Source: a virus
Taxonomy: Duplodnaviria > Heunggongvirae > Uroviricota > Caudoviricetes
Length of the DNA stretch: 20,054 nucleotides
IMG/VR virus record: IMGVR_UViG_2671180360_000015
Coordinates: 1-20,054 of that record
Direction: 5' to 3' (one strand)
A model generated the notes under the pieces. The model ran no database searches and was not told where the DNA came from. It saw only the letters and a program-made list of their open reading frames with translations. Numbering within the stretch: position 1 is the first letter of the stretch; every line of letters begins with the position of its first letter. Shown here piece after piece: positions 3,022 to 15,937 of this stretch. The position numbers and the translations under genes were made by a program.

Positions 3022-3434
3022 GGTTCCCGCCCCTCAAAGCGCTGACGGCAGGCCGTACGTACCAACCGGAAGAACAGCGACGCCATGAGATAAATCAGCG
3101 CGGTAAAAATCCACCCGGCAGCAATCAGCGAGACAAACGTCGCCACCATCACCACCAGAGCCGCCGCCCGTCTGCGCCACGGCACCGGCTGCAAAAACAG
3201 CGACGTGACAATCTGCACGGCCAGCGATTCCGGCGGCAGCTCCCGCCCGTAGCGTTCCAGTACATACTCTGTGGCATACACGCCGACACCACCGGCAACC
3301 ACACAGATAACCGTCGCCAGAATCGCCCAGGCGGCGACAAAACTGACGGCCACGCTCTGCGGGTAAATCAGGGACAGTGCCAGCATCAGCGCCAGCGACA
3401 CGTTCAGCATCAGTGAAAGGGATAATTTCTTCAT
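3009..3434 (-). CDS. lysA: LysA, membrane protein of the lysis cassette (lysis timing)
   Basis: 141 aa with several hydrophobic TM segments; position between K and lysB as in P2. Confidence 0.75.
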   Translation of the reverse strand: MKKLSLSLMLNVSLALMLALSLIYPQSVAVSFVAAWAILATVICVVAGGVGVYATEYVLERYGRELPPESLAVQIVTSLFLQPVPWRRRAAALVVMVATFVSLIAAGWIFTALIYLMASLFFRLVRTACRQRFEGREPCQS

Positions 3435-3448
3435 GGTGTTTACTCCGT

Positions 3449-3946
3449 TTAAGCCGGTACGCCGCCGGCGGTACGCCAGACGGTGACCAGTTTTTCCAGT
3501 GAATGCTCACGCTGACCGTAACCGGCACCCGGCAGGGACGCCCAGATATTGCGACAGCGTGAAATGGCGCGCTCAATGCGTCCCGCCCGGATGTCATCCA
3601 GTGCACCGCGTTCGCGGATCAACTGAATGGCAAGTCTGTCCTGTGACAACGGACTGAAATCCGGCAGGGCAAGCTGTTTGCGGTAATGCGGCCAGAACAG
3701 GTAAAGCTGCTGATAGCGACCGGAGGCCGTGGATTTTTCACCGCGACGGTTAAACACCTTCGCCGGTCGGCCATGTGCGAACGGGTGGTCACTGTAGTCG
3801 GTGAAAATTTCCGGCTTCCCGTCCAGTCCGGTGACTATCACGTCATAGCCCCGGTTTTTCGTCAGCGGATGGTTTGCCGTCCCTTCGGACACGGCCAGCA
3901 TGTCGAGAAAGGCGGCGATATTCTGATGCGTGTTAATAACCGGCAT
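3449..3946 (-). CDS. K: Endolysin gpK (lysozyme family)
   Basis: 165 aa as in P2 gpK; position after holin Y. Confidence 0.85.
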   Translation of the reverse strand: MPVINTHQNIAAFLDMLAVSEGTANHPLTKNRGYDVIVTGLDGKPEIFTDYSDHPFAHGRPAKVFNRRGEKSTASGRYQQLYLFWPHYRKQLALPDFSPLSQDRLAIQLIRERGALDDIRAGRIERAISRCRNIWASLPGAGYGQREHSLEKLVTVWRTAGGVPA

Positions 3947-4227
3947 TACGGTTTCCCCCTGCCCTTAAAGCGGCGCTGAATGGCAATCTCAATCACCTGA
4001 TAACCGGCGATACCCAGCATGGAGCCGATACCGCACACCGCAGGCAGTGACAGGTCAGGAAACTGCACCAGAACAACACCGGCAACCATCGAGACAAAAC
4101 CACCGAGCAACATGCGCCCGATAAACAGACGCGGGGTGATGGGTTCACCACCGGCAAGCACCTTGCCGACAACAATCAGCACCCCAATCATGAAAAGCGA
4201 CAGGACGCTTTTTTCTTCTGCTGTCAT
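3946..4227 (-). CDS. Y: Holin gpY
   Basis: 93 aa as in P2 gpY; hydrophobic TM segments; charged C-terminus RRFKGRGKP. Confidence 0.8.
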   Translation of the reverse strand: MTAEEKSVLSLFMIGVLIVVGKVLAGGEPITPRLFIGRMLLGGFVSMVAGVVLVQFPDLSLPAVCGIGSMLGIAGYQVIEIAIQRRFKGRGKP

Positions 4228-4230
4228 GCG

Positions 4231-4434
4231 TTACTCCCACAGATTGACAGTTTCAGCCACGGGCGCGGTCTGAACGTCGGGCAGTTCGACGGCGGTGCCG
4301 TGTGGCAGCACCGCACCCAGTTCAGCCAGTCCCGGATTTGCGGCGAGCACGGTCTCAACCACGCCCTCAGTGCGCCCGTAATACCGGACACAAATGGCGT
4401 CGAGCGTGTCGCCCTGTAGCGCAAAGGTCTTCAT
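4231..4434 (-). CDS. X: Tail protein gpX
   Basis: Internal start MKTFALQGDTLDAICVRYYG gives 67 aa as in P2 gpX; LysM-like motif; ATGA overlap with L stop. Confidence 0.75.
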   Translation of the reverse strand: MKTFALQGDTLDAICVRYYGRTEGVVETVLAANPGLAELGAVLPHGTAVELPDVQTAPVAETVNLWE

Positions 4435-4943
4435 CAGATTTGACTCACGATGCAGCGCGGCTTGCCCTGGATGCGCGCCACTGCCCAGCGCATATCCCGC
4501 CACAGCTCATCAATGGTGCTGTCAATGCTGTCGGCCTTCTTGTCGCCTTTCGCACTGGCATCCACACCGCGATAACGTTCATAAAGCGACGCGGTCGCCA
4601 TCGCACACACGGCGCGCTCGTAGTAAAAAACTTTGATGCTTTCACCGTCGATGTCGTCCGCCGGGACGTCCGCCAGACGCGTAAAACCGGCGGCAATTTT
4701 CTGTTCGCGGTACTCGTACAGCTCCGCATTCGTCTCCGCCATGCCTGACTTGATGGCCTCACGCAGACGGGCGGGGGCGACGGTCTGCTCAAGGCGCATA
4801 CGTTCCCGGACGCGCTTCGGGTCGATATCGGGAAAAAAGAACGTGTTTTTAATCACCGGCTCGTCGCCTGCCGGTTGCGGGATGACCACCGTACCCTCAC
4901 CGGACACGGGAGCCTCCTTTCGCGGAATAATCAGCGTCATCAT
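4434..4943 (-). CDS. L: Head completion/stabilisation protein gpL
   Basis: Start at MMTLIIPRKE gives 169 aa as in P2 gpL; synteny M-L-X. Confidence 0.8.
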   Translation of the reverse strand: MMTLIIPRKEAPVSGEGTVVIPQPAGDEPVIKNTFFFPDIDPKRVRERMRLEQTVAPARLREAIKSGMAETNAELYEYREQKIAAGFTRLADVPADDIDGESIKVFYYERAVCAMATASLYERYRGVDASAKGDKKADSIDSTIDELWRDMRWAVARIQGKPRCIVSQI

Positions 4944-5042
4944 GACTACCTCTGAAAAGTCGGGCGGTGGACGCCGGTGCAGTGTCAGGTGATTCACCCT
5001 CACTGACCGGCGTGCCGCCCTGGCGCGGGGCGCATTCGGTTG

Positions 5043-5786
5043 TTAACTGGCTTTCTTTTTCGGGCGTCCACGTTTTGCCGGTGTCACGCTCCGGATCTTA
5101 CGCGGGGCGCGGGTGGCCGCTTTGGGCTGCGGCTCCGGCTTCGGTTTCAGCTCCCGCTCCAGTCGTTCAATCTCTTTTTTGACGCCTGCCTGACAGTCGA
5201 GCTGTGTCGCACGTTGCAGGTGAGCCAGCGCACCGGCGGCATCACCACCGTCACGCAGAAACAGACCGGTGATTTTGTGCAGCTTTGCGCGCACTTCATC
5301 AGGCATGTCAGCCGTGGCGGTCAGTTCAAGGGTGTCCGTCAGCAGGCGGGTATCCACAGACTCACCCGCAGCGTGAGCGCGCATGGCCGCAAGCGCCACC
5401 TCCTCGGTGAACATGTACGGCGGGGTGCGGCGGTGTTTACCCGGCATGGTCAGACCGTACTTCAGGGCATAACGGGCAATCTCCAGCGCACCGGCAATAT
5501 CGCCGGTATCCAGACGCCACAGCATGACCGTCATCAGAATGTCATCCTGTGCACCTTTGCCCTGCTCCAGCACGCCATTCACCCACGGCAACCAGAACGG
5601 CAGCAGTTCGCGTTTTTTCGCGGCCTTCAGCTCTTTTGAATAAATCGCTTTCAGTGTGCGCTGGTCTGCGGCGAGCTTAACCAGCATCTGCTCATAGACA
5701 GTTGCATGTCGCAGCGGGGCGGCTTCCCGCTGCGCGGTCATCGCTGCCGAGACCCGCATCATGTGGCGCTGTGCGGGACTCGTCAT
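5043..5786 (-). CDS. M: Terminase small (endonuclease) subunit gpM
   Basis: 247 aa as in P2 gpM; basic C-terminus; synteny. Confidence 0.85.
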   Translation of the reverse strand: MTSPAQRHMMRVSAAMTAQREAAPLRHATVYEQMLVKLAADQRTLKAIYSKELKAAKKRELLPFWLPWVNGVLEQGKGAQDDILMTVMLWRLDTGDIAGALEIARYALKYGLTMPGKHRRTPPYMFTEEVALAAMRAHAAGESVDTRLLTDTLELTATADMPDEVRAKLHKITGLFLRDGGDAAGALAHLQRATQLDCQAGVKKEIERLERELKPKPEPQPKAATRAPRKIRSVTPAKRGRPKKKAS

Positions 5787-5789
5787 CGG

Positions 5790-6863
5790 TTACGCTCCCG
5801 GCTCTGCGGTCGCTTTAGCCAGTGTGGAGAAATCACCGACCTTAATTTTTTCCACCAGACAACCGGCGGCGTAGTCTTCCACCACGTAATCAATGTTCAT
5901 TGACTCGTAGTTCTCCACGCGGTCGAGTTTCGGGTTTTCCTCAATCACGCGGCGATGGCTGTCATCCATGTAGTAGATGGACAGGTTTTCCAGCTTTGTG
6001 ATGAGCATCGCATCCGCCGGGAAGTACGGGACGCGTACCGCCGGCAGGTTACCGATGCGTTTCTGGCTGATGATGACGTCAGCGGCCAGCATTTCGCTGT
6101 TGTCCTGCTCCTTGTTGACGATGGGAAAATACTTGTCCGCCAGTAGCTGACGTCCCACAATCACCACAAGGTCAGGGTCTTCCTGATACCACGGCTCAAT
6201 CAGGTTGTTGGTCGCATCCATCACCAGTGCGTCAAGGCTGGCATAATCACCGCCCTTACCCACGCGGATAACCTCAGAGGTGGTGTGCCCTTCCTCGTCA
6301 GTGACCTTGCTCATCACGCGCGCCGGGGCTTCATTGCGGTATTTCTGCAGCCAGCCGACCGCCACATCCTGCAGCATCGGATTGCTGCTGCGGTCAGAGG
6401 TTTCGGCACGCCTCACGCCGTTAAAACCGGCCATGATTAAATCAAGGGACTGGCGTTTGATAATGGCGTTACGGACACGGAGCTGGAAATCCTGATAACG
6501 CGCCCACAGGTCCAGCGTTTTGTAGCGGATATAAAAATCGAAGTTAATCTGGTCGCATTCGTACTTGTTTGACGCCAGCTTCGAGAAGTCCTTCGGCTGA
6601 CGCTCGGTGCCACCGGCGGTGTCGCTGGTGCTGGCGATGGAGCCGGTGACACCGATGCCAATTTTTTCCCCTTTCATTTCGCTGACCGGCACAATGTTGA
6701 TGCGGGTCAGAAAGTCAGAGGACTCCTGCATGGTGTTCATCAGGGTCTGGGTGACCGACGGTTCAACGGTGAATTTTTTCGACACATCACCGGCGTCGAT
6801 GCCGTTCAGTTCGGCAACACGGGACAGGTAGGCATTAAATTTAAAGCGGGTTTCCTGGCGCAT
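5790..6863 (-). CDS. N: Major capsid protein gpN
   Basis: 357 aa as in P2 gpN; synteny O-N-M. Confidence 0.9.
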   Translation of the reverse strand: MRQETRFKFNAYLSRVAELNGIDAGDVSKKFTVEPSVTQTLMNTMQESSDFLTRINIVPVSEMKGEKIGIGVTGSIASTSDTAGGTERQPKDFSKLASNKYECDQINFDFYIRYKTLDLWARYQDFQLRVRNAIIKRQSLDLIMAGFNGVRRAETSDRSSNPMLQDVAVGWLQKYRNEAPARVMSKVTDEEGHTTSEVIRVGKGGDYASLDALVMDATNNLIEPWYQEDPDLVVIVGRQLLADKYFPIVNKEQDNSEMLAADVIISQKRIGNLPAVRVPYFPADAMLITKLENLSIYYMDDSHRRVIEENPKLDRVENYESMNIDYVVEDYAAGCLVEKIKVGDFSTLAKATAEPGA

Positions 6864-6921
6864 AGTTTTTCCTGAAATTAAGGGTTAATCGTGAAGGTTT
6901 TCCCGGACTGACTGACGCCGG

Positions 6922-7776: not shown

Positions 7777-7949
7777 TGTCAGGAGTCCTGAATAGTGATT
7801 AGAGGAGTCACATGTCGGCATCAGTTTCCCGACGATGCGCATCCTCCGCCATCAGTCCCGGATGGCTTATCACTGACACAACAGCACCTTAGCGAATCGC
7901 GGGGCGCGACTCAGTAGCCTTGCCGTGTATTCATCACGGCGAGGTATTC
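7777..7949. promoter_or_regulatory. Divergent late promoter region between O (leftward) and P (rightward)
   Basis: 173-bp intergenic region between divergent late operons, as for P2 PO/PP; contains inverted repeat GCCGTG-N7-CACGGC at 7922..7940; no exact TGT-N12-ACA activator dyad found by eye. Confidence 0.5.
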
Positions 7950-9722
7950 ATGACCATCACCACAGACACCACTCTTTTACACGACCCGCGTCGTCAGGCG
8001 GCGCTGCTGTACTGGCAGGGATTTTCCGTGCCGCAGATTGCCGCCATGTTGCAGATGAAACGCCCGACGGTGCAGAGCTGGAAACAGCGCGACGGCTGGG
8101 ACAGCGTTGCCCCCATCAGCCGTGTCGAAATGAGTCTGGAAGCGCGGCTGACCCAGCTCATCATCAAACCGCAGAAAACCGGCGGTGACTTCAAGGAAAT
8201 TGACCTGCTCGGACGCCAGATTGAACGACTGGCACGGGTCAACCGTTACAGTCAGACCGGCAACGAGGCAGACCTTAATCCGAACGTCGCTAACCGCAAC
8301 AAAGGCGGGCGTCGCAAACCGAAAAAGAATTTTTTCAGTGACGAGGCCATCGAAAAGCTGGAGCAGATTTTCTTTGAGCAGTCTTTCGAATATCAGTTGC
8401 ACTGGTATCGCGCAGGGCTTGAGCACCGCATCCGCGATATCCTGAAATCCCGCCAGATTGGCGCGACGTTTTATTTTTCCCGCGAGGCGCTGCTGCGCGC
8501 CCTGAAAACCGGTCATAACCAGATTTTTCTGTCGGCCAGTAAAACGCAGGCGTATGTGTTCCGCGAATACATCATCGCCTTTGCCCGGCTGGTTGACGTT
8601 GACCTGACCGGTGACCCGATTGTCCTGGGCAATAACGGCGCAAAACTGATTTTTCTCGGCACCAACTCCAACACCGCGCAGAGCCATAACGGCGACCTGT
8701 ACGTCGACGAGATTTTCTGGATCCCGAATTTTCAGGTACTGCGTAAGGTGGCATCAGGTATGGCCTCACAGAGTCACCTGCGCTCGACCTATTTCTCCAC
8801 CCCGTCCACACTGGCGCACGACGCCTACCCGTTCTGGTCGGGTGAACTGTTTAACCGGGGACGCGCCAGCGCCGCCGAACGCGTGGAAATCGACGTCAGT
8901 CATAACGCCCTTGCCGGTGGGCTTCTCTGTGCGGACGGCCAGTGGCGGCAGATTGTCACCATTGAGGACGCCCTGAAAGGCGGCTGCACGCTGTTCGACA
9001 TTGAGCAGCTCAAACGTGAAAACAGCGCCGACGATTTTAAAAACCTGTTCATGTGTGAATTTGTTGACGACAAGGCGTCGGTGTTCCCGTTCGAGGAGCT
9101 GCAACGCTGCATGGTCGACACGCTGGAAGAATGGGAAGACTATGCTCCGTTTGCCGCCAATCCGTTCGGCTCACGTCCGGTATGGATTGGTTACGACCCG
9201 TCACACCGTGGCGACAGCGCCGGATGCGTGGTGCTGGCACCGCCGGTGGTGGCCGGTGGCAAATTCAGAATACTTGAGCGTCACCAGTGGAAAGGCATGG
9301 ACTTTGCCACCCAGGCTGAATCCATCCGCAAACTCACCGAAAAATATAACGTCGAATACATCGGTATTGATGCCACCGGCCTCGGTGTCGGCGTGTTCCA
9401 GCTCGTGCGCTCGTTCTATCCCGCCGCGCGCGATATCCGCTACACGCCGGAAATGAAAACTGCAATGGTGCTCAAGGCAAAAGACGTTATCCGCCGTGGC
9501 TGTCTGGAATATGACGTCAGCGCCACCGACATCACCAGCTCGTTCATGGCTATCCGCAAGACCATGACCAGCAGCGGACGCAGCGCCACCTATGAGGCCA
9601 GCCGCAGCGAGGAAGCCAGCCACGCCGACCTCGCCTGGGCGACCATGCACGCCCTGTTAAATGAGCCACTCACCGCCGGTATCAGCACTCCGCTGACATC
9701 CACCATTCTGGAGTTTTACTGA
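7950..9722 (+). CDS. P: Terminase large subunit (ATPase) gpP
   Basis: Start MTITTDTT at 7950 preceded by GAGG gives 590 aa as in P2 gpP; 1-nt stop/start overlap with Q. Confidence 0.9.
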   Translation: MTITTDTTLLHDPRRQAALLYWQGFSVPQIAAMLQMKRPTVQSWKQRDGWDSVAPISRVEMSLEARLTQLIIKPQKTGGDFKEIDLLGRQIERLARVNRYSQTGNEADLNPNVANRNKGGRRKPKKNFFSDEAIEKLEQIFFEQSFEYQLHWYRAGLEHRIRDILKSRQIGATFYFSREALLRALKTGHNQIFLSASKTQAYVFREYIIAFARLVDVDLTGDPIVLGNNGAKLIFLGTNSNTAQSHNGDLYVDEIFWIPNFQVLRKVASGMASQSHLRSTYFSTPSTLAHDAYPFWSGELFNRGRASAAERVEIDVSHNALAGGLLCADGQWRQIVTIEDALKGGCTLFDIEQLKRENSADDFKNLFMCEFVDDKASVFPFEELQRCMVDTLEEWEDYAPFAANPFGSRPVWIGYDPSHRGDSAGCVVLAPPVVAGGKFRILERHQWKGMDFATQAESIRKLTEKYNVEYIGIDATGLGVGVFQLVRSFYPAARDIRYTPEMKTAMVLKAKDVIRRGCLEYDVSATDITSSFMAIRKTMTSSGRSATYEASRSEEASHADLAWATMHALLNEPLTAGISTPLTSTILEFY

Positions 9723-10756
9723 TGAGTAAGAAAAAAGGGAAAACACCGCAGCCAGCGGTGAAAACAATGACTGCCAGCGCCCCGAAAATGGAAGCATTCA
9801 CCTTTGGTGAGCCGGTGCCGGTACTCGACCGCCGTGACATTCTGGATTACGTCGAGTGCATCAGTAACGGCAGATGGTATGAGCCACCGGTCAGCTTTAC
9901 CGGTCTGGCAAAAAGCCTGCGTGCTGCCGTGCATCACAGCTCACCAATTTACGTCAAACGCAATATTCTGGCCTCGACATTTATCCCGCATCCGTGGCTT
10001 TCTCAGCAGGATTTCAGCCGCTTTGTGCTGGATTTTCTGGTGTTCGGTAATGCGTTTCTGGAAAAGCGTTACAGCACTACCGGTAAGGTCATCAGACTGG
10101 AAACCTCACCGGCAAAATATACCCGCCGTGGGGTGGAGGAGGATGTTTACTGGTGGGTGCCGTCCTTCAACGAGCCGACACCTTTCACGCCCGGCTCCGT
10201 GTTTCACCTGCTGGAGCCGGATATTAATCAGGAGCTGTACGGCCTGCCGGAATATCTCAGCGCCCTTAACTCTGCCTGGCTGAATGAGTCGGCCACGCTG
10301 TTCCGCCGCAAGTATTACGAAAACGGCGCACATGCCGGATACATCATGTACGTCACTGATGCCGTGCAGGATCGCAACGATATCGAAATGCTTCGCGAAA
10401 ACATGGTTAAGTCGAAAGGCCGCAATAACTTTAAAAATCTGTTTCTCTATGCCCCACAGGGGAAAGCCGACGGCATTAAAATTATCCCGCTCAGTGAAGT
10501 GGCAACGAAGGACGATTTTTTTAATATCAAAAAAGCCAGCGCCGCTGACCTGCTGGACGCGCACCGCATCCCCTTTCAGTTGATGGGGGGCAAGCCGGAG
10601 AACGTCGGGTCGCTGGGTGATATTGAGAAAGTGGCAAAGGTCTTTGTCCGCAATGAGCTTATCCCGTTACAGGACAGGATCCGCGAGATAAACGGCTGGC
10701 TCGGTCAGGAGGTCATCCGCTTTAAAAACTACTCACTGGACACTGACAACGGCTGA
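9722..10756 (+). CDS. Q: Portal protein gpQ
   Basis: 344 aa as in P2 gpQ; followed by terminator and cos. Confidence 0.9.
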   Translation: MSKKKGKTPQPAVKTMTASAPKMEAFTFGEPVPVLDRRDILDYVECISNGRWYEPPVSFTGLAKSLRAAVHHSSPIYVKRNILASTFIPHPWLSQQDFSRFVLDFLVFGNAFLEKRYSTTGKVIRLETSPAKYTRRGVEEDVYWWVPSFNEPTPFTPGSVFHLLEPDINQELYGLPEYLSALNSAWLNESATLFRRKYYENGAHAGYIMYVTDAVQDRNDIEMLRENMVKSKGRNNFKNLFLYAPQGKADGIKIIPLSEVATKDDFFNIKKASAADLLDAHRIPFQLMGGKPENVGSLGDIEKVAKVFVRNELIPLQDRIREINGWLGQEVIRFKNYSLDTDNG

Positions 10757-10761
10757 ACATC

Positions 10762-10783
10762 GCCGCCTGCGGGCGGCTTTTTT
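10762..10783 (+). terminator. Rho-independent terminator downstream of Q
   Basis: GCCGCC-tgcg-GGCGGC stem-loop followed by TTTTTT, 6 nt after the Q stop. Confidence 0.6.
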
Positions 10784-10925
10784 ACAACCCGCCATCACGC
10801 CCTCACACGCTCACCACCGCACAAAACAGCCCGCAGACACACCAACGCCCCGGCTAACAATCTAAACGCCATCACGACGCGCTCAGACGCTGAAAAAATA
10901 AAATCAGCACCACCGCCAGCGCGCA

Positions 10926-10944
10926 GTGCTTTCCCCGCCTCGCC
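10926..10944. other. cos: cos site: 19-nt cohesive-end sequence of P2 (window minus strand reads GGCGAGGCGGGGAAAGCAC)
   Basis: Exact reverse complement of the recalled P2 19-nt cohesive end; about 190 bp to the left (10757..10944) also matches the recalled P2 left-end sequence; position between Q and the old/tin-equivalent locus. Confidence 0.8.
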
Positions 10945-11104
10945 CGCCCGCTTCATGGGGCGGTTTTAATGCAGTTGCATTACCATACAGAAGTACTGCC
11001 ACGTCTGACAATTCATAGCTAGAATGTATAGCATATGTTGCATGCAAAATAATGCATATAAAGAATGCTTTTCACTCAATACTTCATCATACGATTTTGT
11101 TGGC

Positions 11105-11887
11105 TCATTTTAGAAGCCCTATTATAGCTGCAATCATACTTCCTACGCCGCCGACTGCTGCGAAAAAAGTAGCCCAAAACATTTTCTTCTGAGTACTCAA
11201 ATTCTCTCTGTACCGCACCTCATCTTTATTGAATGTAGATATTGTGTTCAGTGCCTTTCCTGTTGGCCTAAATCCACTACTTGTTTCAACAAGATCTCCA
11301 TTCTGAACAAGAGAATTCAGGCATAAACGAAGCTCTTTACGCATCCTGTTTTTATCGTCATGGTATACCCATAAACTACCAGCGACTTCGGTCATTATTG
11401 AAAACTCACTAAACACAGTTTGAGCATCCCATTCACGATACATTCTTATAATCGTTGAGAGAACAAACATCACATCAGTTATTTCTTTTTTTTGCTGTCG
11501 ATAAATATATTTTTCACGACTAAACTTTATATTTTCATAATTAGACTTTACTCTAAAGAACAACTCCCTTAAAAATGTTAAATCATTTAAAGAGTTAAAT
11601 CGCAACTCATGCGCACGGTAGTAGTAAACACCAAAAAAAGAATCAGGCGTAACCTCAGAAATATCCAAGCATGAACTTATATGAAATCTACGCTCCTCAT
11701 CATCCCATTTAAAAGCCTTTATCTTCCCATCAACCAAACAGTCAAAGAGGTATTCTGTATCATTTTTATCTTTAATATATACAGAGTACATATCATACTT
11801 AATCGCGTTTTCATATAACAAACTAATACGGCCATCATCTGGCGTTCTTTTCTTATCAAACTTCTTAAGTTGGTTTATAATTTTCAT
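11105..11887 (-). CDS. Hypothetical protein, 260 aa, soluble N-terminal domain with a single C-terminal TM anchor; candidate defence effector
   Basis: Long ORF in AT-rich DNA; C-terminal hydrophobic segment MFWATFFAAVGGVGSMIAAIIGLLK; no recognisable motif; weak SD. Confidence 0.65.
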   Translation of the reverse strand: MKIINQLKKFDKKRTPDDGRISLLYENAIKYDMYSVYIKDKNDTEYLFDCLVDGKIKAFKWDDEERRFHISSCLDISEVTPDSFFGVYYYRAHELRFNSLNDLTFLRELFFRVKSNYENIKFSREKYIYRQQKKEITDVMFVLSTIIRMYREWDAQTVFSEFSIMTEVAGSLWVYHDDKNRMRKELRLCLNSLVQNGDLVETSSGFRPTGKALNTISTFNKDEVRYRENLSTQKKMFWATFFAAVGGVGSMIAAIIGLLK

Positions 11888-11945
11888 AACATTCTCGCAG
11901 TGCTAATCTCATACGCAACAAATCTCGGTTCTGCCGCTCTAATAG

Positions 11946-11988
11946 TCAAAAAATGCCGACACCCAATTAAATATTCAGCGTCGGCATT
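11946..11988 (-). terminator. Terminator-like hairpin between the two cassette genes
   Basis: On the minus strand AATGCCGAC / GTCGGCATT 9-bp stem with 19-nt loop followed by a T-run, 9 nt after the upstream gene stop; loop is long for a canonical terminator. Confidence 0.35.
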
Positions 11989-11996
11989 GTAAGATA

Positions 11997-12770
11997 TCAA
12001 TTATCTATGATTGATATCACCTTACCAGTTTTTATATCAACACGCGCAGCAATCGTCTGTTTCACCACTCCGCCATAAGCATTAGTTCCGCGAAACGTGG
12101 TTTTCACAATGGCATGCGGGTCTTTATTCAAAACCAGATGATATACCGTTGATACATGTTTATAAGATGAATCATCGTTCATATTATCTTTAATTAGTTT
12201 TTCCAATGGACGATAAGAACCATCCCAACCACTAAAATTACTCTGAAATGTATCAAGATTGATTTTATTGTTTAGTGAATTCGGGTCATTTTCATAATCA
12301 TTAAAGCACCACCCAAGAACATCACCGAGTTTCAACTCATCATCTTTGGTAAATGTATATTCACTCATGCAGGCATAAAACGCATCTGACGCGGTGGCTG
12401 GAACTTCCTTAAAATCAATGTAACTATTCACAATATCGTGTCGTGTTTTCTTTGACTCGTTCCGATATTCCTTGAGTGTTTTTTCACCATATTCGAATGT
12501 TTTTTGGACTTTATGTTCTGCAACGGTTGATGTTTCAGTTTTATCAACTGGCTGGCTTTTTTCTGTTGGATAGAGTATTGAACCAATTATGCTCAATACA
12601 AAACCTCCTCCGAGATAAACCGCACTTGCACGTTTGCGGTTTGGCATTCGCACCAGTGATGGCTTGATTAACCCGATGAAGAAAGCAACGAAAAAAGCGA
12701 GTGATAGAAAAGCGATTATAGTATCCATAGCTATCCTTTTTGCATCATCCACATAAAAAATCGACCTCAT
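11997..12770 (-). CDS. Hypothetical membrane protein, 257 aa (243 aa from the start at 12728); two N-terminal TM helices and a ~180-aa C-terminal domain predicted to be periplasmic
   Basis: AT-rich ORF; TM1 TIIAFLSLAFFVAFFIGLI, basic loop RMPNRKRAS, TM2 AVYLGGGFVLSIIGSILY; the ATG at 12728 has the better SD (AAAGGAtagctATG). Confidence 0.65.
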   Translation of the reverse strand: MRSIFYVDDAKRIAMDTIIAFLSLAFFVAFFIGLIKPSLVRMPNRKRASAVYLGGGFVLSIIGSILYPTEKSQPVDKTETSTVAEHKVQKTFEYGEKTLKEYRNESKKTRHDIVNSYIDFKEVPATASDAFYACMSEYTFTKDDELKLGDVLGWCFNDYENDPNSLNNKINLDTFQSNFSGWDGSYRPLEKLIKDNMNDDSSYKHVSTVYHLVLNKDPHAIVKTTFRGTNAYGGVVKQTIAARVDIKTGKVISIIDN

Positions 12771-13157
12771 GTTAGCAACAGGATGCTTACTTTTGAATAT
12801 TTGTAAGTTGTTAGCTCTCCAACCTAACTCCTTTCAACCGTCAAAAACCGGCACCAACGCAGTAAAAATATGTCTGTCAACTAACGCCTCGCTACGCTCG
12901 TTGTTCAACCCCGCCAGCCCTGAAAACAAGTTTCACGACTGGCGGCGTTCTCTATCGTCTTCGTGGTGGTGGCGCAACTCTGGACTGACCGATATAGTTA
13001 AGCCGCCCGTAATTATCCCGAACTATTTCGGCACACCCGACCAGCTCATCGGGCGTCAGATTTTCGTTGACCATAATCCGCTGTAAACGCTGAACAATAG
13101 CCATCAGCTTGATATTTTTAGTTTTATGGTGCGGTATCTCGCCTGGTATTCTGTGCA

Positions 13158-13613
13158 TTATCCAAGCCACCCGTTTTGCTTTGCACGCTCCACCTGTTCA
13201 TCTGAATAGTTCCATATCCCATCCGCAGCAACCACTGCCCCGCCAGACAGCCCCGTCTCTGGTTCATACATAACAGCAAGGCCGAGCTGATGCATAATTT
13301 CATGATTAATTCTGAATACCAGACCACGTTCACTAAGTTCTTTCCAGTTCACAATCTTATATGCGCCCGTATTAAGCAGCTCAATACTTAGCAAGACATA
13401 ATCTTCCAGCCAGTCTGACAGGTCAGTAACATCTGTTATCCGGGCTTCAACCTTTCGCCCCGTAAACACACCCTGCACCCATTCATGCAAAATCAACGTG
13501 TCCCCGCGCTCATAATTACGGTCATTTTTCCGAAACTCTGCGCGTTTTTTTCCTTCCAGTACAAGGTCGAAATATTTTGCGTGCAGCTTTACCTCGTGAA
13601 TTTTTGCCATCAT
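13158..13613 (-). CDS. ASCH-like / DUF3850-type protein with C-terminal extension (151 aa)
   Basis: MAKIHEVKLHAKYFDLVLEGKKRAEFRKNDRNYERGDTLILHEW resembles the DUF3850/ASCH signature; start ATG overlaps the gpA stop (ATGA); occupies the P2 orf91 position. Confidence 0.7.
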   Translation of the reverse strand: MMAKIHEVKLHAKYFDLVLEGKKRAEFRKNDRNYERGDTLILHEWVQGVFTGRKVEARITDVTDLSDWLEDYVLLSIELLNTGAYKIVNWKELSERGLVFRINHEIMHQLGLAVMYEPETGLSGGAVVAADGIWNYSDEQVERAKQNGWLG

Positions 13614-15937
13614 GTCCACTCCATTACTGTTGAGAATCCCGGCCACTCATCAGCGACCGGATACGTGAATTTTTTCCCGTCATAATTTACGGTCGCGCCA
13701 CGCACCAGCGCCTCAAGCTCCCATCGTTGCGGCCTGATACCGTTCTGAGCGAGGTCAACGCGGATACGGGTAATTTGCAATCGTTCTGACCGGGTCAGTC
13801 TGGCCGATGGCGCTATTTCATGCGGTTTTAACGGGTTTCCGTTTCTTTGCTGACGGTTTGGTCTTCTCAGACCGTGTTTTAATGCGCTTCTGAGCGCCCT
13901 CACGACCTCCGGGTCATTCCATTCGATAACACCGTCATCAACCAGATTAAGCACTGCTGCGGCGTGCTCAGAAGGTGTGGGAGCCGGTAACGAAGCATCA
14001 CCACCGGTGAGCTTTCCACAGTTATTGACAGGACTCCGAGGCGCGGCGATGCCGCTTTTTAAAGTCAAAGGCTCAACGACCGGAACTTTCGGAACAATGC
14101 GCCAGTCCGTCGTTCTGGTGATATGAATATGACGCGCGCCGAGATGCGGCGCGTAAATGCCGACCACTCTCTCGACTTCTTCCTCGTACTCGTTAACGTC
14201 ATCCGACGGGCTACGGGCGACCCTGACAGTCTGACAATCGCGCGGGACATTTGCCCCACCCTGCGCGCTGATATACAACGCAAAATCACCACTGTCTGCG
14301 GCGGCGCGTGCAGCCTCGACGCGCTCGTCAAACTCATCAGCAATGCTGACGCCGCGCGGCAATTTGCGTAGTTCACGGTAAGCCCCCATTGTCGGCAGGC
14401 CAACCGTTTTAAATTGCGGGATGCGCCACGTTGACGCCCATGCGGTAACAGCCGCTGCAGTGTCTTTCAGCGGCCTGCCGGTGTCGTTATCGAGCTGACC
14501 ATCCAGTGCATAGCCGTCGATGTTTTTTGAAATGTATTTCGCGATATATCCCGCAGCACCGCCCCGGTTAAGGTGTTTTGCCTGAAAACGGTTTCGCGCG
14601 GCTCCTCTTTCGTCGCCATCCTCTTTGAGCGCATAGCGACGCATGATTTCGATAATCTGGTTACGCTGGCGTGAATTACAAAAAAGCATCATATGCCAGT
14701 GCGGCGTTCCGTCGTGGTGTGGCTCGACGACACGCAAACCGTAGACCTGTAAATCATTATCCTTGAATGCCGTGCGCATCAGGCTCCAGATACGGCAGAG
14801 ATAACGCTGCGCATCCTTTGGATTAAATGCCTCATCGTTCCAGCCGTGATTAAGCTGCACGGTTTTACTTTCGCCTTTTCCTACCTGACGTGTCGGGTGA
14901 TACTTTGACGGCGCGGTCAGCGTGATAAACATCCCCACATCACCCTCTGCAGCGGCGTAACGCTCAATACCGGCAATGGTGTTCATCAGCTCCATCCGGC
15001 GAATTTCAGGATTAGAAATACTGCCCATCACCTTACTGATAAGGTCGATGCGCTCGCCGGTTTCCCTGTTTTCAAGGTCACACGATTTAAGAAATTCCAG
15101 ATTTGCCTGGCGGCGCGCACGCACATCACGAATGGCGTGTTTACTGGCATAAGGAGAACGGTCTTTATTGACCTCCCCGACAGCTATCAGTAACGCTTCA
15201 TGCCAGCGCATACGCTGGCCTTTAAGCTGACTAATCCACCACTCATCGTTAAACAGGCGGGCAATGGCAGAATATGCCTGCCTCGTGGTCATCTGTCCTT
15301 TACGGTATTTTTTCCAGTAGAGCGGGGAAATATTGAAAGCACGTGCAGCGCCAGCAACATGACCATACAGATGTGCCTGCGCCTCATCCGTAAACAGCGA
15401 TTCTTTTTCACCATGCGCATCAACCCATGCATCGCAGAGTTCCTCATACATCATGAAAAGCTGCGATGAGATACGGGCGGCAAACTTTTTCAGCTCCTTG
15501 TCATTCATTCCAGGCAGGCGCGCATAGTGGTCACGCTCTGCCAGAAACAGCAACGACGCGTCGGTGTTCATTTCATGGCGCTGATTCACGCGCTCAATGC
15601 GCGGCCATAAACGACGCTGAAAAGTGGATGTGAGGAAATAAAACCCGTGTACCGGACTTTTATTGCGCCGGATGTAGTCATAGCGTGAAGTAAACAGCGA
15701 GCGCAAAAAGTAAGGCAGGCGGTTAATCGTGGATAAAACACCTTGCACCTGACGCATCTCGTCACGTGTAAGGGGTCTTTCGCGCCCGACAGCCTCGCGT
15801 GGCGCGTTCCATGCATAAGCACCAGTAAACGCCTTACCGGTGCCTGCGGCAAATGCTGACGGAGGGACAAAACGCCCGGAGGCTTTAACGGCCATATGAG
15901 CCAAAAGCCTCAGAACAACGCTTGCTGAGTTGCTCAA
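13610..15937 (-). CDS. A: Replication initiation endonuclease gpA (rolling-circle initiator)
   Basis: HUH motif in EPHHDGTPHWHMMLF; start at MAVKASG (15895) would give 761 aa, the recalled P2 gpA length; longest ORF is 775 aa. Confidence 0.9.
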   Translation of the reverse strand: MSNSASVVLRLLAHMAVKASGRFVPPSAFAAGTGKAFTGAYAWNAPREAVGRERPLTRDEMRQVQGVLSTINRLPYFLRSLFTSRYDYIRRNKSPVHGFYFLTSTFQRRLWPRIERVNQRHEMNTDASLLFLAERDHYARLPGMNDKELKKFAARISSQLFMMYEELCDAWVDAHGEKESLFTDEAQAHLYGHVAGAARAFNISPLYWKKYRKGQMTTRQAYSAIARLFNDEWWISQLKGQRMRWHEALLIAVGEVNKDRSPYASKHAIRDVRARRQANLEFLKSCDLENRETGERIDLISKVMGSISNPEIRRMELMNTIAGIERYAAAEGDVGMFITLTAPSKYHPTRQVGKGESKTVQLNHGWNDEAFNPKDAQRYLCRIWSLMRTAFKDNDLQVYGLRVVEPHHDGTPHWHMMLFCNSRQRNQIIEIMRRYALKEDGDERGAARNRFQAKHLNRGGAAGYIAKYISKNIDGYALDGQLDNDTGRPLKDTAAAVTAWASTWRIPQFKTVGLPTMGAYRELRKLPRGVSIADEFDERVEAARAAADSGDFALYISAQGGANVPRDCQTVRVARSPSDDVNEYEEEVERVVGIYAPHLGARHIHITRTTDWRIVPKVPVVEPLTLKSGIAAPRSPVNNCGKLTGGDASLPAPTPSEHAAAVLNLVDDGVIEWNDPEVVRALRSALKHGLRRPNRQQRNGNPLKPHEIAPSARLTRSERLQITRIRVDLAQNGIRPQRWELEALVRGATVNYDGKKFTYPVADEWPGFSTVMEWT

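Follow-up and report, generated by a model that had tools for sequence, protein, structure and literature searches.

Two probably independent single-gene cassettes, an Orf97 homologue and an orphan tail-anchored protein, between cos and gene A of a P2-like Escherichia coli prophage

The window analyzed here is a stretch of 20,054 nucleotides (nt) from the IMG/VR virus record IMGVR_UViG_2671180360_000015 and corresponds to a P2-like (Peduovirus) Escherichia coli prophage. Between the cohesive-end site cos and the replication gene A it carries two co-directional minus-strand genes, an upstream gene coding for a homologue of Orf97 of phage 186 (11997-12728) and a downstream gene coding for an orphan protein with a predicted C-terminal membrane anchor (11105-11887). 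It is concluded, with a probability of roughly 60%, that these are two independently mobile single-gene cassettes and not a two-component system, and that each would act by an exclusion or defence mechanism of its own. The segment 11105-12770 is 100% identical to a segment of E. coli E70, in which the prophage integrase adjoins pflA.

Separate distribution of the two genes

Of 19 species-level loci that contain the upstream gene, none also has the downstream gene. The upstream gene was identified in 84 of 5,426 complete E. coli genomes, and both genes were present in only six of these 84; in the rest of the listed E. coli genomes the homology to the window ends at most about 10 bp from the stop codon of the upstream gene. 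Three loci (L005, L008 and L013) carry no cargo other than the upstream gene between the phage backbone and cos. Other neighbours of this gene are unrelated proteins of 182, 198 and 575 amino acids (aa) and a 232-aa protein with two transmembrane (TM) helices, and in L012 and L018 a P4-type integrase comes next after it. A different protein of ∼232 aa with N-terminal TM helices, a candidate for further membrane cargo, was observed after the orf97 homologue in L001 (266-964, phage 9W), L002 (143-841, P24A7b) and L003 (2695-3276), where near-identical P2-type backbones carry two alleles of it that are only 29% identical and have no PADLOC match.

The downstream gene likewise occurs in different surroundings. 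Among 35 IMG/VR loci with this gene, the upstream gene stands directly before it in 20 and does not in 15. L049-L053 carry the downstream gene and no other cargo, and it starts 40-70 bp after gene A. In five other loci it comes straight after tum, and orf97 is missing. In four loci (L040, L043, L047 and L055) a complete type VI retron is followed by the downstream gene. Ten E. coli genomes share a divergent allele of the downstream gene, and the one that was examined (H57, locus L059) has the same type VI retron. In this locus (E. coli EH01-18-02, 4499-6893), genes for a 51-aa small protein, a helix-turn-helix (HTH) protein and a reverse transcriptase (RT) are followed by the homologue of the downstream gene, and the retron genes could be assigned with E-values of 9e-106 (RT_VI) and 2e-31 (HTH_VI). 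The same array was observed in L061 (Acerihabitans arboris, 3110-5774), with the retron genes assigned by homology to those of L059, inside a cluster for a conjugative type IV secretion system and outside any phage. Because the retron proteins of L059 and L061 are 66-74% identical, the downstream-gene homologues only 38%, and the spacers between them differ, the association of the retron with the downstream gene looks recurrent. A role of the downstream gene as the effector of type VI retrons was considered and is rejected as a general explanation, since the published type VI retron is complete with the small protein, the HTH protein and the RT, without the downstream gene, and since this gene also occurs free of any retron, as in the window, where RT_VI and HTH_VI genes are absent. 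In L037 (2655-4534) genes for an AbiL-like ATPase and its partner (AbiLi 1e-19, AbiLii 6e-7) were observed after the downstream-gene homologue; therefore, several defence cassettes stack in the slot.

In the window the two genes are separated by an intrinsic terminator on the minus strand (11947-11988) with a G+C-rich stem of 12 bp and a U6 tract. Its predicted fold has an energy of -24.4 kcal/mol (z = -6.3), and none of 200 shuffled sequences folded as well; some read-through is possible. The junction between the genes differs by lineage: in the window it is formed by this terminator, in 186-like phages by a conserved hairpin element. The original prediction had suggested that the two proteins may form a membrane sensor/effector pair. 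Such a pair is not supported, as each gene occurs as sole cargo; nor is a single transcription unit, given the strong terminator and the end of homology at the upstream stop codon in phages with other partners.

The hairpin element of the 186-like phages is also present in the window, as a structured element of ∼70 nt on the minus strand (12881-12949) that lies upstream of the orf97 homologue and marks the gene-A-side edge of the cargo slot. It consists of an 18-bp hairpin with eight covarying pairs, followed by GGTTGAACAACGAGC...GCGAGGCGTTAGTT, and is 87% identical to positions 30344-30412 of 186, located 3' of orf97. Its core, GGTTGAACAACGAG (12897-12910), was found as one copy per locus in 33 of 60 loci. 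In the window the element stands before the orf97 homologue, in 186 it follows orf97, and in 186-like phages it separates the two genes; elsewhere it could be identified between the retron RT gene and the downstream-gene homologue. It lacks a U-tract, and no Rfam family matched it; a search of the region 10700-13700 against Rfam resulted in chance sub-threshold matches only. The element may act as an anchor for recombination or as an RNA.

The Orf97 homologue and the tail-anchored protein

The upstream reading frame is open from 11997 to 12770 (257 aa). The most likely start codon is the ATG at position 12728, which gives a protein of 243 aa, because it is preceded by an AAGGA Shine-Dalgarno sequence and agrees with the start in the PHROG profile, in the RefSeq annotation and in 186 Orf97. 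When phage genomes were searched with tblastn, 186 orf97 matched the upstream protein with 76.1% identity over 243 of 243 aa (E = 8e-117), and the profile of the 186 Orf97 family, phrog_3403, matched it at 3.5e-147. Homologues are labelled "Orf97" in some P2-like phage records. The annotation of an exclusion phenotype in the 186 genome record presumably dates from the 1990s. This record (GenBank U32222, Orf97 = AAC34191) gives the order of an SOS-dependent promoter p95 with a LexA site, tum, the partial terminator t95a, orf97, the terminator t95b and cos, and states for orf97 that "expression from plasmid blocks 186 infection". The genes tum and orf97 have been called the 186 SOS operon (PMC5322425), and the order of LexA box, tum and orf97 repeats among the retrieved 186-like loci. 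Neither tum nor a LexA box of the form CTGT-N8-ACAG could be identified in the window, and the orf97 homologue does not belong to a LexA/p95-tum-orf97 operon there. Nucleotide homology to 186 begins at position 29556 of the 186 record, within t95a, and a degraded remnant of t95a together with the Shine-Dalgarno sequence lies just upstream of the orf97 homologue (12735-12778, minus strand).

Based on the full-length identity of 76% and the annotation in U32222, the upstream gene belongs to a family for which an exclusion phenotype is already noted in the 186 GenBank entry. The original prediction of superinfection exclusion was therefore a good guess for this gene. Its supposed novelty is not supported, as the gene is conserved across 186-like phages in the tum SOS operon. 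In the searchable literature no more than a passing mention of orf97 was found, and neither this literature nor the supplements of DefensePredictor contained the RefSeq accessions of the two proteins. The G+C content of the window gene (11997-12728) is 37.7% and that of 186 orf97 (29604-30335 of the record) is 46%, despite the 76% identity of the proteins, which is a large compositional shift inside one gene family.

Structures of both proteins were predicted with AlphaFold2 using family alignments, which resulted in confident models with predicted local distance difference test (pLDDT) values of 84 and 86. The upstream protein has two N-terminal TM helices, at residues 2-21 and 31-52 in the model and 3-21 and 34-52 by hydropathy. 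The loop between them carries five positive charges, and therefore both the N-terminus and the C-terminus are placed outside. A disordered linker (56-73) leads to a periplasmic helical domain (85-163) that is similar to HdeA/HdeB and contains the two cysteines that are invariant across the family, C120 and C141; in the model, the HdeA-like bundle is probably stapled by a disulphide. The final part (173-241) consists of a helix and a four-stranded sheet, for which weak structural matches to NTF2/VirB8-like folds were obtained. A near-invariant motif of the family is W-D-G-S-Y-R-P-L-E. The protein is not counted among the HdeA/HdeB chaperones, as it has no match to Pfam HdeA and is not a small free periplasmic dimer. 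To our knowledge, an architecture of an HdeA-like and an alpha/beta periplasmic part has not been described for the phage proteins SieA, Imm and Sp.

An exhaustive profile search with the upstream protein resulted in 2,914 cluster representatives (clusters at 50% identity) at E ≤ 0.001. Many of these relatives keep only the final ∼80 residues, in other architectures, and in distant relatives N-terminal zinc ribbons and bPH domains were identified by Pfam. No Pfam domain covered the C-terminal module in the relatives that were scanned, and this module may represent an undescribed extracytoplasmic domain family. It spans residues ∼159-243 (window 11997-12250) and recurs across diverse architectures.

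The downstream gene (11105-11887, minus strand) codes for a protein of 260 aa, in which a six-stranded beta domain (32-97) is followed by a long basic helix (105-131) and a winged helix (139-208). The C-terminal helix is likewise long and ends in a TM segment (241-259) after which a single residue remains, and the protein is therefore predicted to be cytoplasmic and tail-anchored. The three-helix bundle and beta-hairpin wing of residues 139-208 superpose on known winged-helix domains. The family is small, comprising 36 clusters among 5.8 billion proteins, all from Enterobacterales, and the gene was found in none of 50,697 deposited phage genomes. A Foldseek search of viral predicted structures gave no match at E ≤ 0.001. 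A Pfam scan of all 24 members of the family alignment gave nothing consistent, and the alignment contains no conserved catalytic motif. A PD-(D/E)xK nuclease in the beta domain was considered and rejected, since the candidate acidic and lysine positions vary in the alignment. The site in the region that most resembles a promoter (TTATCA, 17-nt spacer, TATAAT; 10 of 12 positions) lies at 11853-11881 on the plus strand, antisense within the 5' end of the downstream gene, and may be due to chance in AT-rich DNA.

For either protein, no Pfam, NCBIfam or PADLOC match was obtained, and profile searches against PDB sequences gave no match. As expected from the original prediction, the proteins thus show no recognised enzymatic motif, and the hydropathy and AlphaFold2 results agree with the topologies it had proposed, with N-terminal TM helices and a periplasmic domain in the upstream protein and a cytoplasmic part with a C-terminal TM helix in the downstream protein.

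The 186 annotation, the topology and the fold suggest that the upstream gene most likely confers superinfection exclusion at the stage of the envelope. With its N-terminus outside, its charged loop in the cytoplasm and a non-enzymatic periplasmic domain of ∼170 residues held at the inner membrane, the Orf97 homologue would exclude phages of the P2/186 type, and possibly others, at the envelope. It might bind a component of the phage ejection machinery or tail tip, or the entry route in the inner membrane, by which the DNA would be kept out of the cytoplasm. In 186-like phages, orf97 is transcribed from the LexA-repressed p95 downstream of tum and would act mainly during SOS induction; in the P2-type window, the homologue lacks this SOS control. 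For the downstream gene, and with less confidence, the predicted structure suggests a protein that plausibly serves in exclusion or defence on its own, independently of the Orf97 homologue. It would work on the cytoplasmic side of the inner membrane, where the winged helix and the basic helix may contact nucleic acid entering the cell or a protein of the phage. It can tentatively be proposed that the downstream gene founds a new single-gene anti-phage family of tail-anchored, non-enzymatic proteins that intercept phage DNA or protein. Its neighbourhood to orf97, the tum operon and type VI retrons, the last in P2-type prophages as well as in a conjugative element, would then reflect a shared role in exclusion, which the SOS response would turn on in 186-like phages.

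Alternative explanations

The cos-to-A hotspot was defined by Rousset et al. (2022; PMC9122126), who located many validated defence systems in this slot. Several observations weigh against the reading of the two genes as independent exclusion or defence cassettes. In the same study the slot was also found to hold non-defence cargo, such as partition systems and a cytolethal distending toxin, and protection was obtained with only three of eight additional cloned P2 systems (PMC9122126). The 186 exclusion phenotype was seen upon expression from a plasmid and could be an artefact of over-expression. The adjacency in 20 of 35 loci, in a fixed order and in two divergent backbones, makes some functional synergy of the two genes possible. 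Finally, no convincing promoter could be identified just upstream of either start codon, where the number of promoter-like matches was not above that in shuffled sequences.

One alternative, which is considered unlikely, is that both genes serve the induction or lytic programme of the phage, by remodelling of the envelope or modulation of CI/Tum, and that the exclusion of 186 is a side effect of over-expression. Indeed, the order LexA box, tum and orf97, then followed by the downstream gene, is present in many 186-like loci. In five such loci (L031, L045, L046, L054 and L058) a homologue of the downstream gene lies straight after tum and replaces orf97, and judged from this arrangement it is probably under LexA/SOS control there; in L045, L046 and L058 a t95a-like hairpin also precedes it. 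The short distance to gene A in L049-L053 looks as if the downstream gene is co-transcribed with the early operon, and a winged helix could be regulatory. However, both genes are also found in P2-type backbones that are non-inducible and have neither tum nor a LexA box, as in the window, and in Acerihabitans the downstream homologue adjoins the retron in the conjugative cluster, with no phage present. Moreover, both genes are dispensable and exchanged like cargo.

It is rather improbable that the genes form an obligate membrane sensor/effector or injection-blocking pair, in which the periplasmic domain senses the attack and signals to the tail-anchored partner. The complementary topologies of the proteins and the constant order in the 20 loci would fit such a pair, as would the existence of divergent pairs, with upstream proteins ∼77% and downstream proteins ∼60% identical to those of the window, in 186-like backbones, Klebsiella aerogenes and Enterobacter. 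Against it stand the separate distribution of the genes and the terminator and variable junction between them. The frequent adjacency in 186-like phages can largely be explained by the positions of the genes around the hairpin element, with orf97 on its gene-A side, inside the tum operon, and the downstream gene always filling the cos-proximal slot. In addition, 186 Orf97 is annotated as infection-blocking although 186 has no downstream gene. It is very unlikely that the two genes are morons that raise the fitness of the host and have nothing to do with phage, coding for instance for a protein similar to periplasmic stress chaperones or for immunity to toxins that target the envelope. Two independently mobile single-gene cassettes are preferred as the explanation.

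Prophage setting and comparison with known systems

Along the plus strand of the window, the genes for terminase P (7920-9722) and portal Q (9722-10756) are followed by cos, the downstream gene, the upstream gene, a 68-aa open reading frame, an orf91-like gene and the replication gene A (13610-15937), and this order places the cassette in the variable slot between cos and gene A. The cohesive-end sequence of cos (19 nt; 10926-10944, minus strand) is an exact single match to GGCGAGGCGGGGAAAGCAC, which we take to be the P2 cohesive end and which had no match in shuffled sequences; it lies 160 bp from the stop codon of the downstream gene. On the other side, the cassette is kept apart from gene A by two small conserved minus-strand genes. 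The first of these is the 68-aa open reading frame (12955-13158; RefSeq annotation), which is part of the conserved P2-type flank between the cargo and gene A. The second, the orf91-like gene (13158-13646), has ASCH/DUF3850 and DUF7415 domains (Pfam DUF3850 1.2e-17, DUF7415 7e-14 and ASCH 2.5e-10). In the window it is full length, with 162 aa. The reference P2 orf91 (Rousset et al., 2022, Table S2) is divergent after residue ∼85, and therefore the variable region of P2 begins inside orf91.

The upstream gene has a G+C content of 37.7% and the downstream gene one of 34.7%, whereas gene A reaches 53.5% and the window as a whole 51.6%. The G+C content drops to 32-40% over 11100-12750 and is 53-60% on both flanks. 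Both the location of two co-directional genes at the hotspot and their foreign, low-G+C composition had been recognised in the original prediction, whose description of the sequence is accurate; its high-novelty reading is mostly unsupported. Indeed, both genes were already listed separately by Rousset et al. (2022; PMC9122126) as single-gene entries in Table S5B, the upstream gene as no. 12 ("2 TM", 210 occurrences) and the downstream gene as no. 68 ("1 TM", 62 occurrences), and the cassette is not an undescribed one. The arrangement is given in Table S5A of the same study as "DUF3850/ASCH + hypothetical x3", and both sequences are absent from its tables of cloned systems.

That P2-like phages store defence systems in the cos-to-A slot is well established, and the choice of which uncharacterised cargo to clone matters. 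With the two-gene system a false lead is removed, and two single-gene questions stay, namely how Orf97 works and what the downstream family does. As orf97 is the twelfth most frequent entry in the P2 hotspots of E. coli (Rousset et al., 2022) and shares its periplasmic domain with a large family of ∼2,900 clusters that has no name, a mechanism for Orf97 would provide an annotation for many proteins. The downstream orphan, although rare and of narrow distribution, has a confident fold, and it offers an inexpensive way to see whether a winged-helix protein that is tethered to the membrane and has no enzymatic domain protects against phages. Neither outcome would overturn present views of phage exclusion or surprise a specialist.

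Like the genes described here, old and tin of P2 are AT-rich prophage accessory genes in the cos-to-A slot with a role in excluding phages (Rousset et al., 2022; PMC9122126). However, there is no relation in sequence or domains: Old is an ATPase-Toprim nuclease and Tin a soluble protein, and neither protein of the window has a Pfam, NCBIfam or PADLOC match to an ATPase with Toprim or homology to Tin. The Rst_2TM_1TM_TIR system of the P2-like phage AC1 (Rousset et al., 2022) occupies the same hotspot and also contains "2 TM" and "1 TM" proteins. Identity with this system is rejected, since the window has no gene for the TIR protein that the AC1 system requires, the TM proteins of AC1 (126 and 186 aa) look unrelated when placed side by side with those of the window, and PADLOC gave no match.

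For the downstream gene, SNIPE/PD-lambda-1 may serve as a functional analogue, as it demonstrates that membrane-tethered defence directed at DNA exists at the site of injection (PMC13190303). SNIPE has an N-terminal TM helix, DUF4041 and a GIY-YIG nuclease, whereas the downstream protein is C-terminally anchored with a winged helix, has no Pfam or PADLOC match and no nuclease motif, and is not a member of this family.

The closest relative of the upstream protein is 186 Orf97, a full-length homologue of the same 243 aa with the same two-TM N-terminus, and its gene likewise stands between gene A and cos. Unlike 186 orf97, the window gene is part of a P2-type backbone that lacks tum, p95 and a LexA box. 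It lies on the cos side of the boundary element, is much more AT-rich and is followed by a further cassette. In general terms the upstream protein also resembles SieA of P22 and Imm and Sp of T4, which are small, phage-encoded, non-enzymatic inner-membrane proteins that block DNA entry (PMC10883804). No homology to these proteins was detected, though no search aimed at it was made; their mode of action is the one that is proposed for the orf97 homologue.

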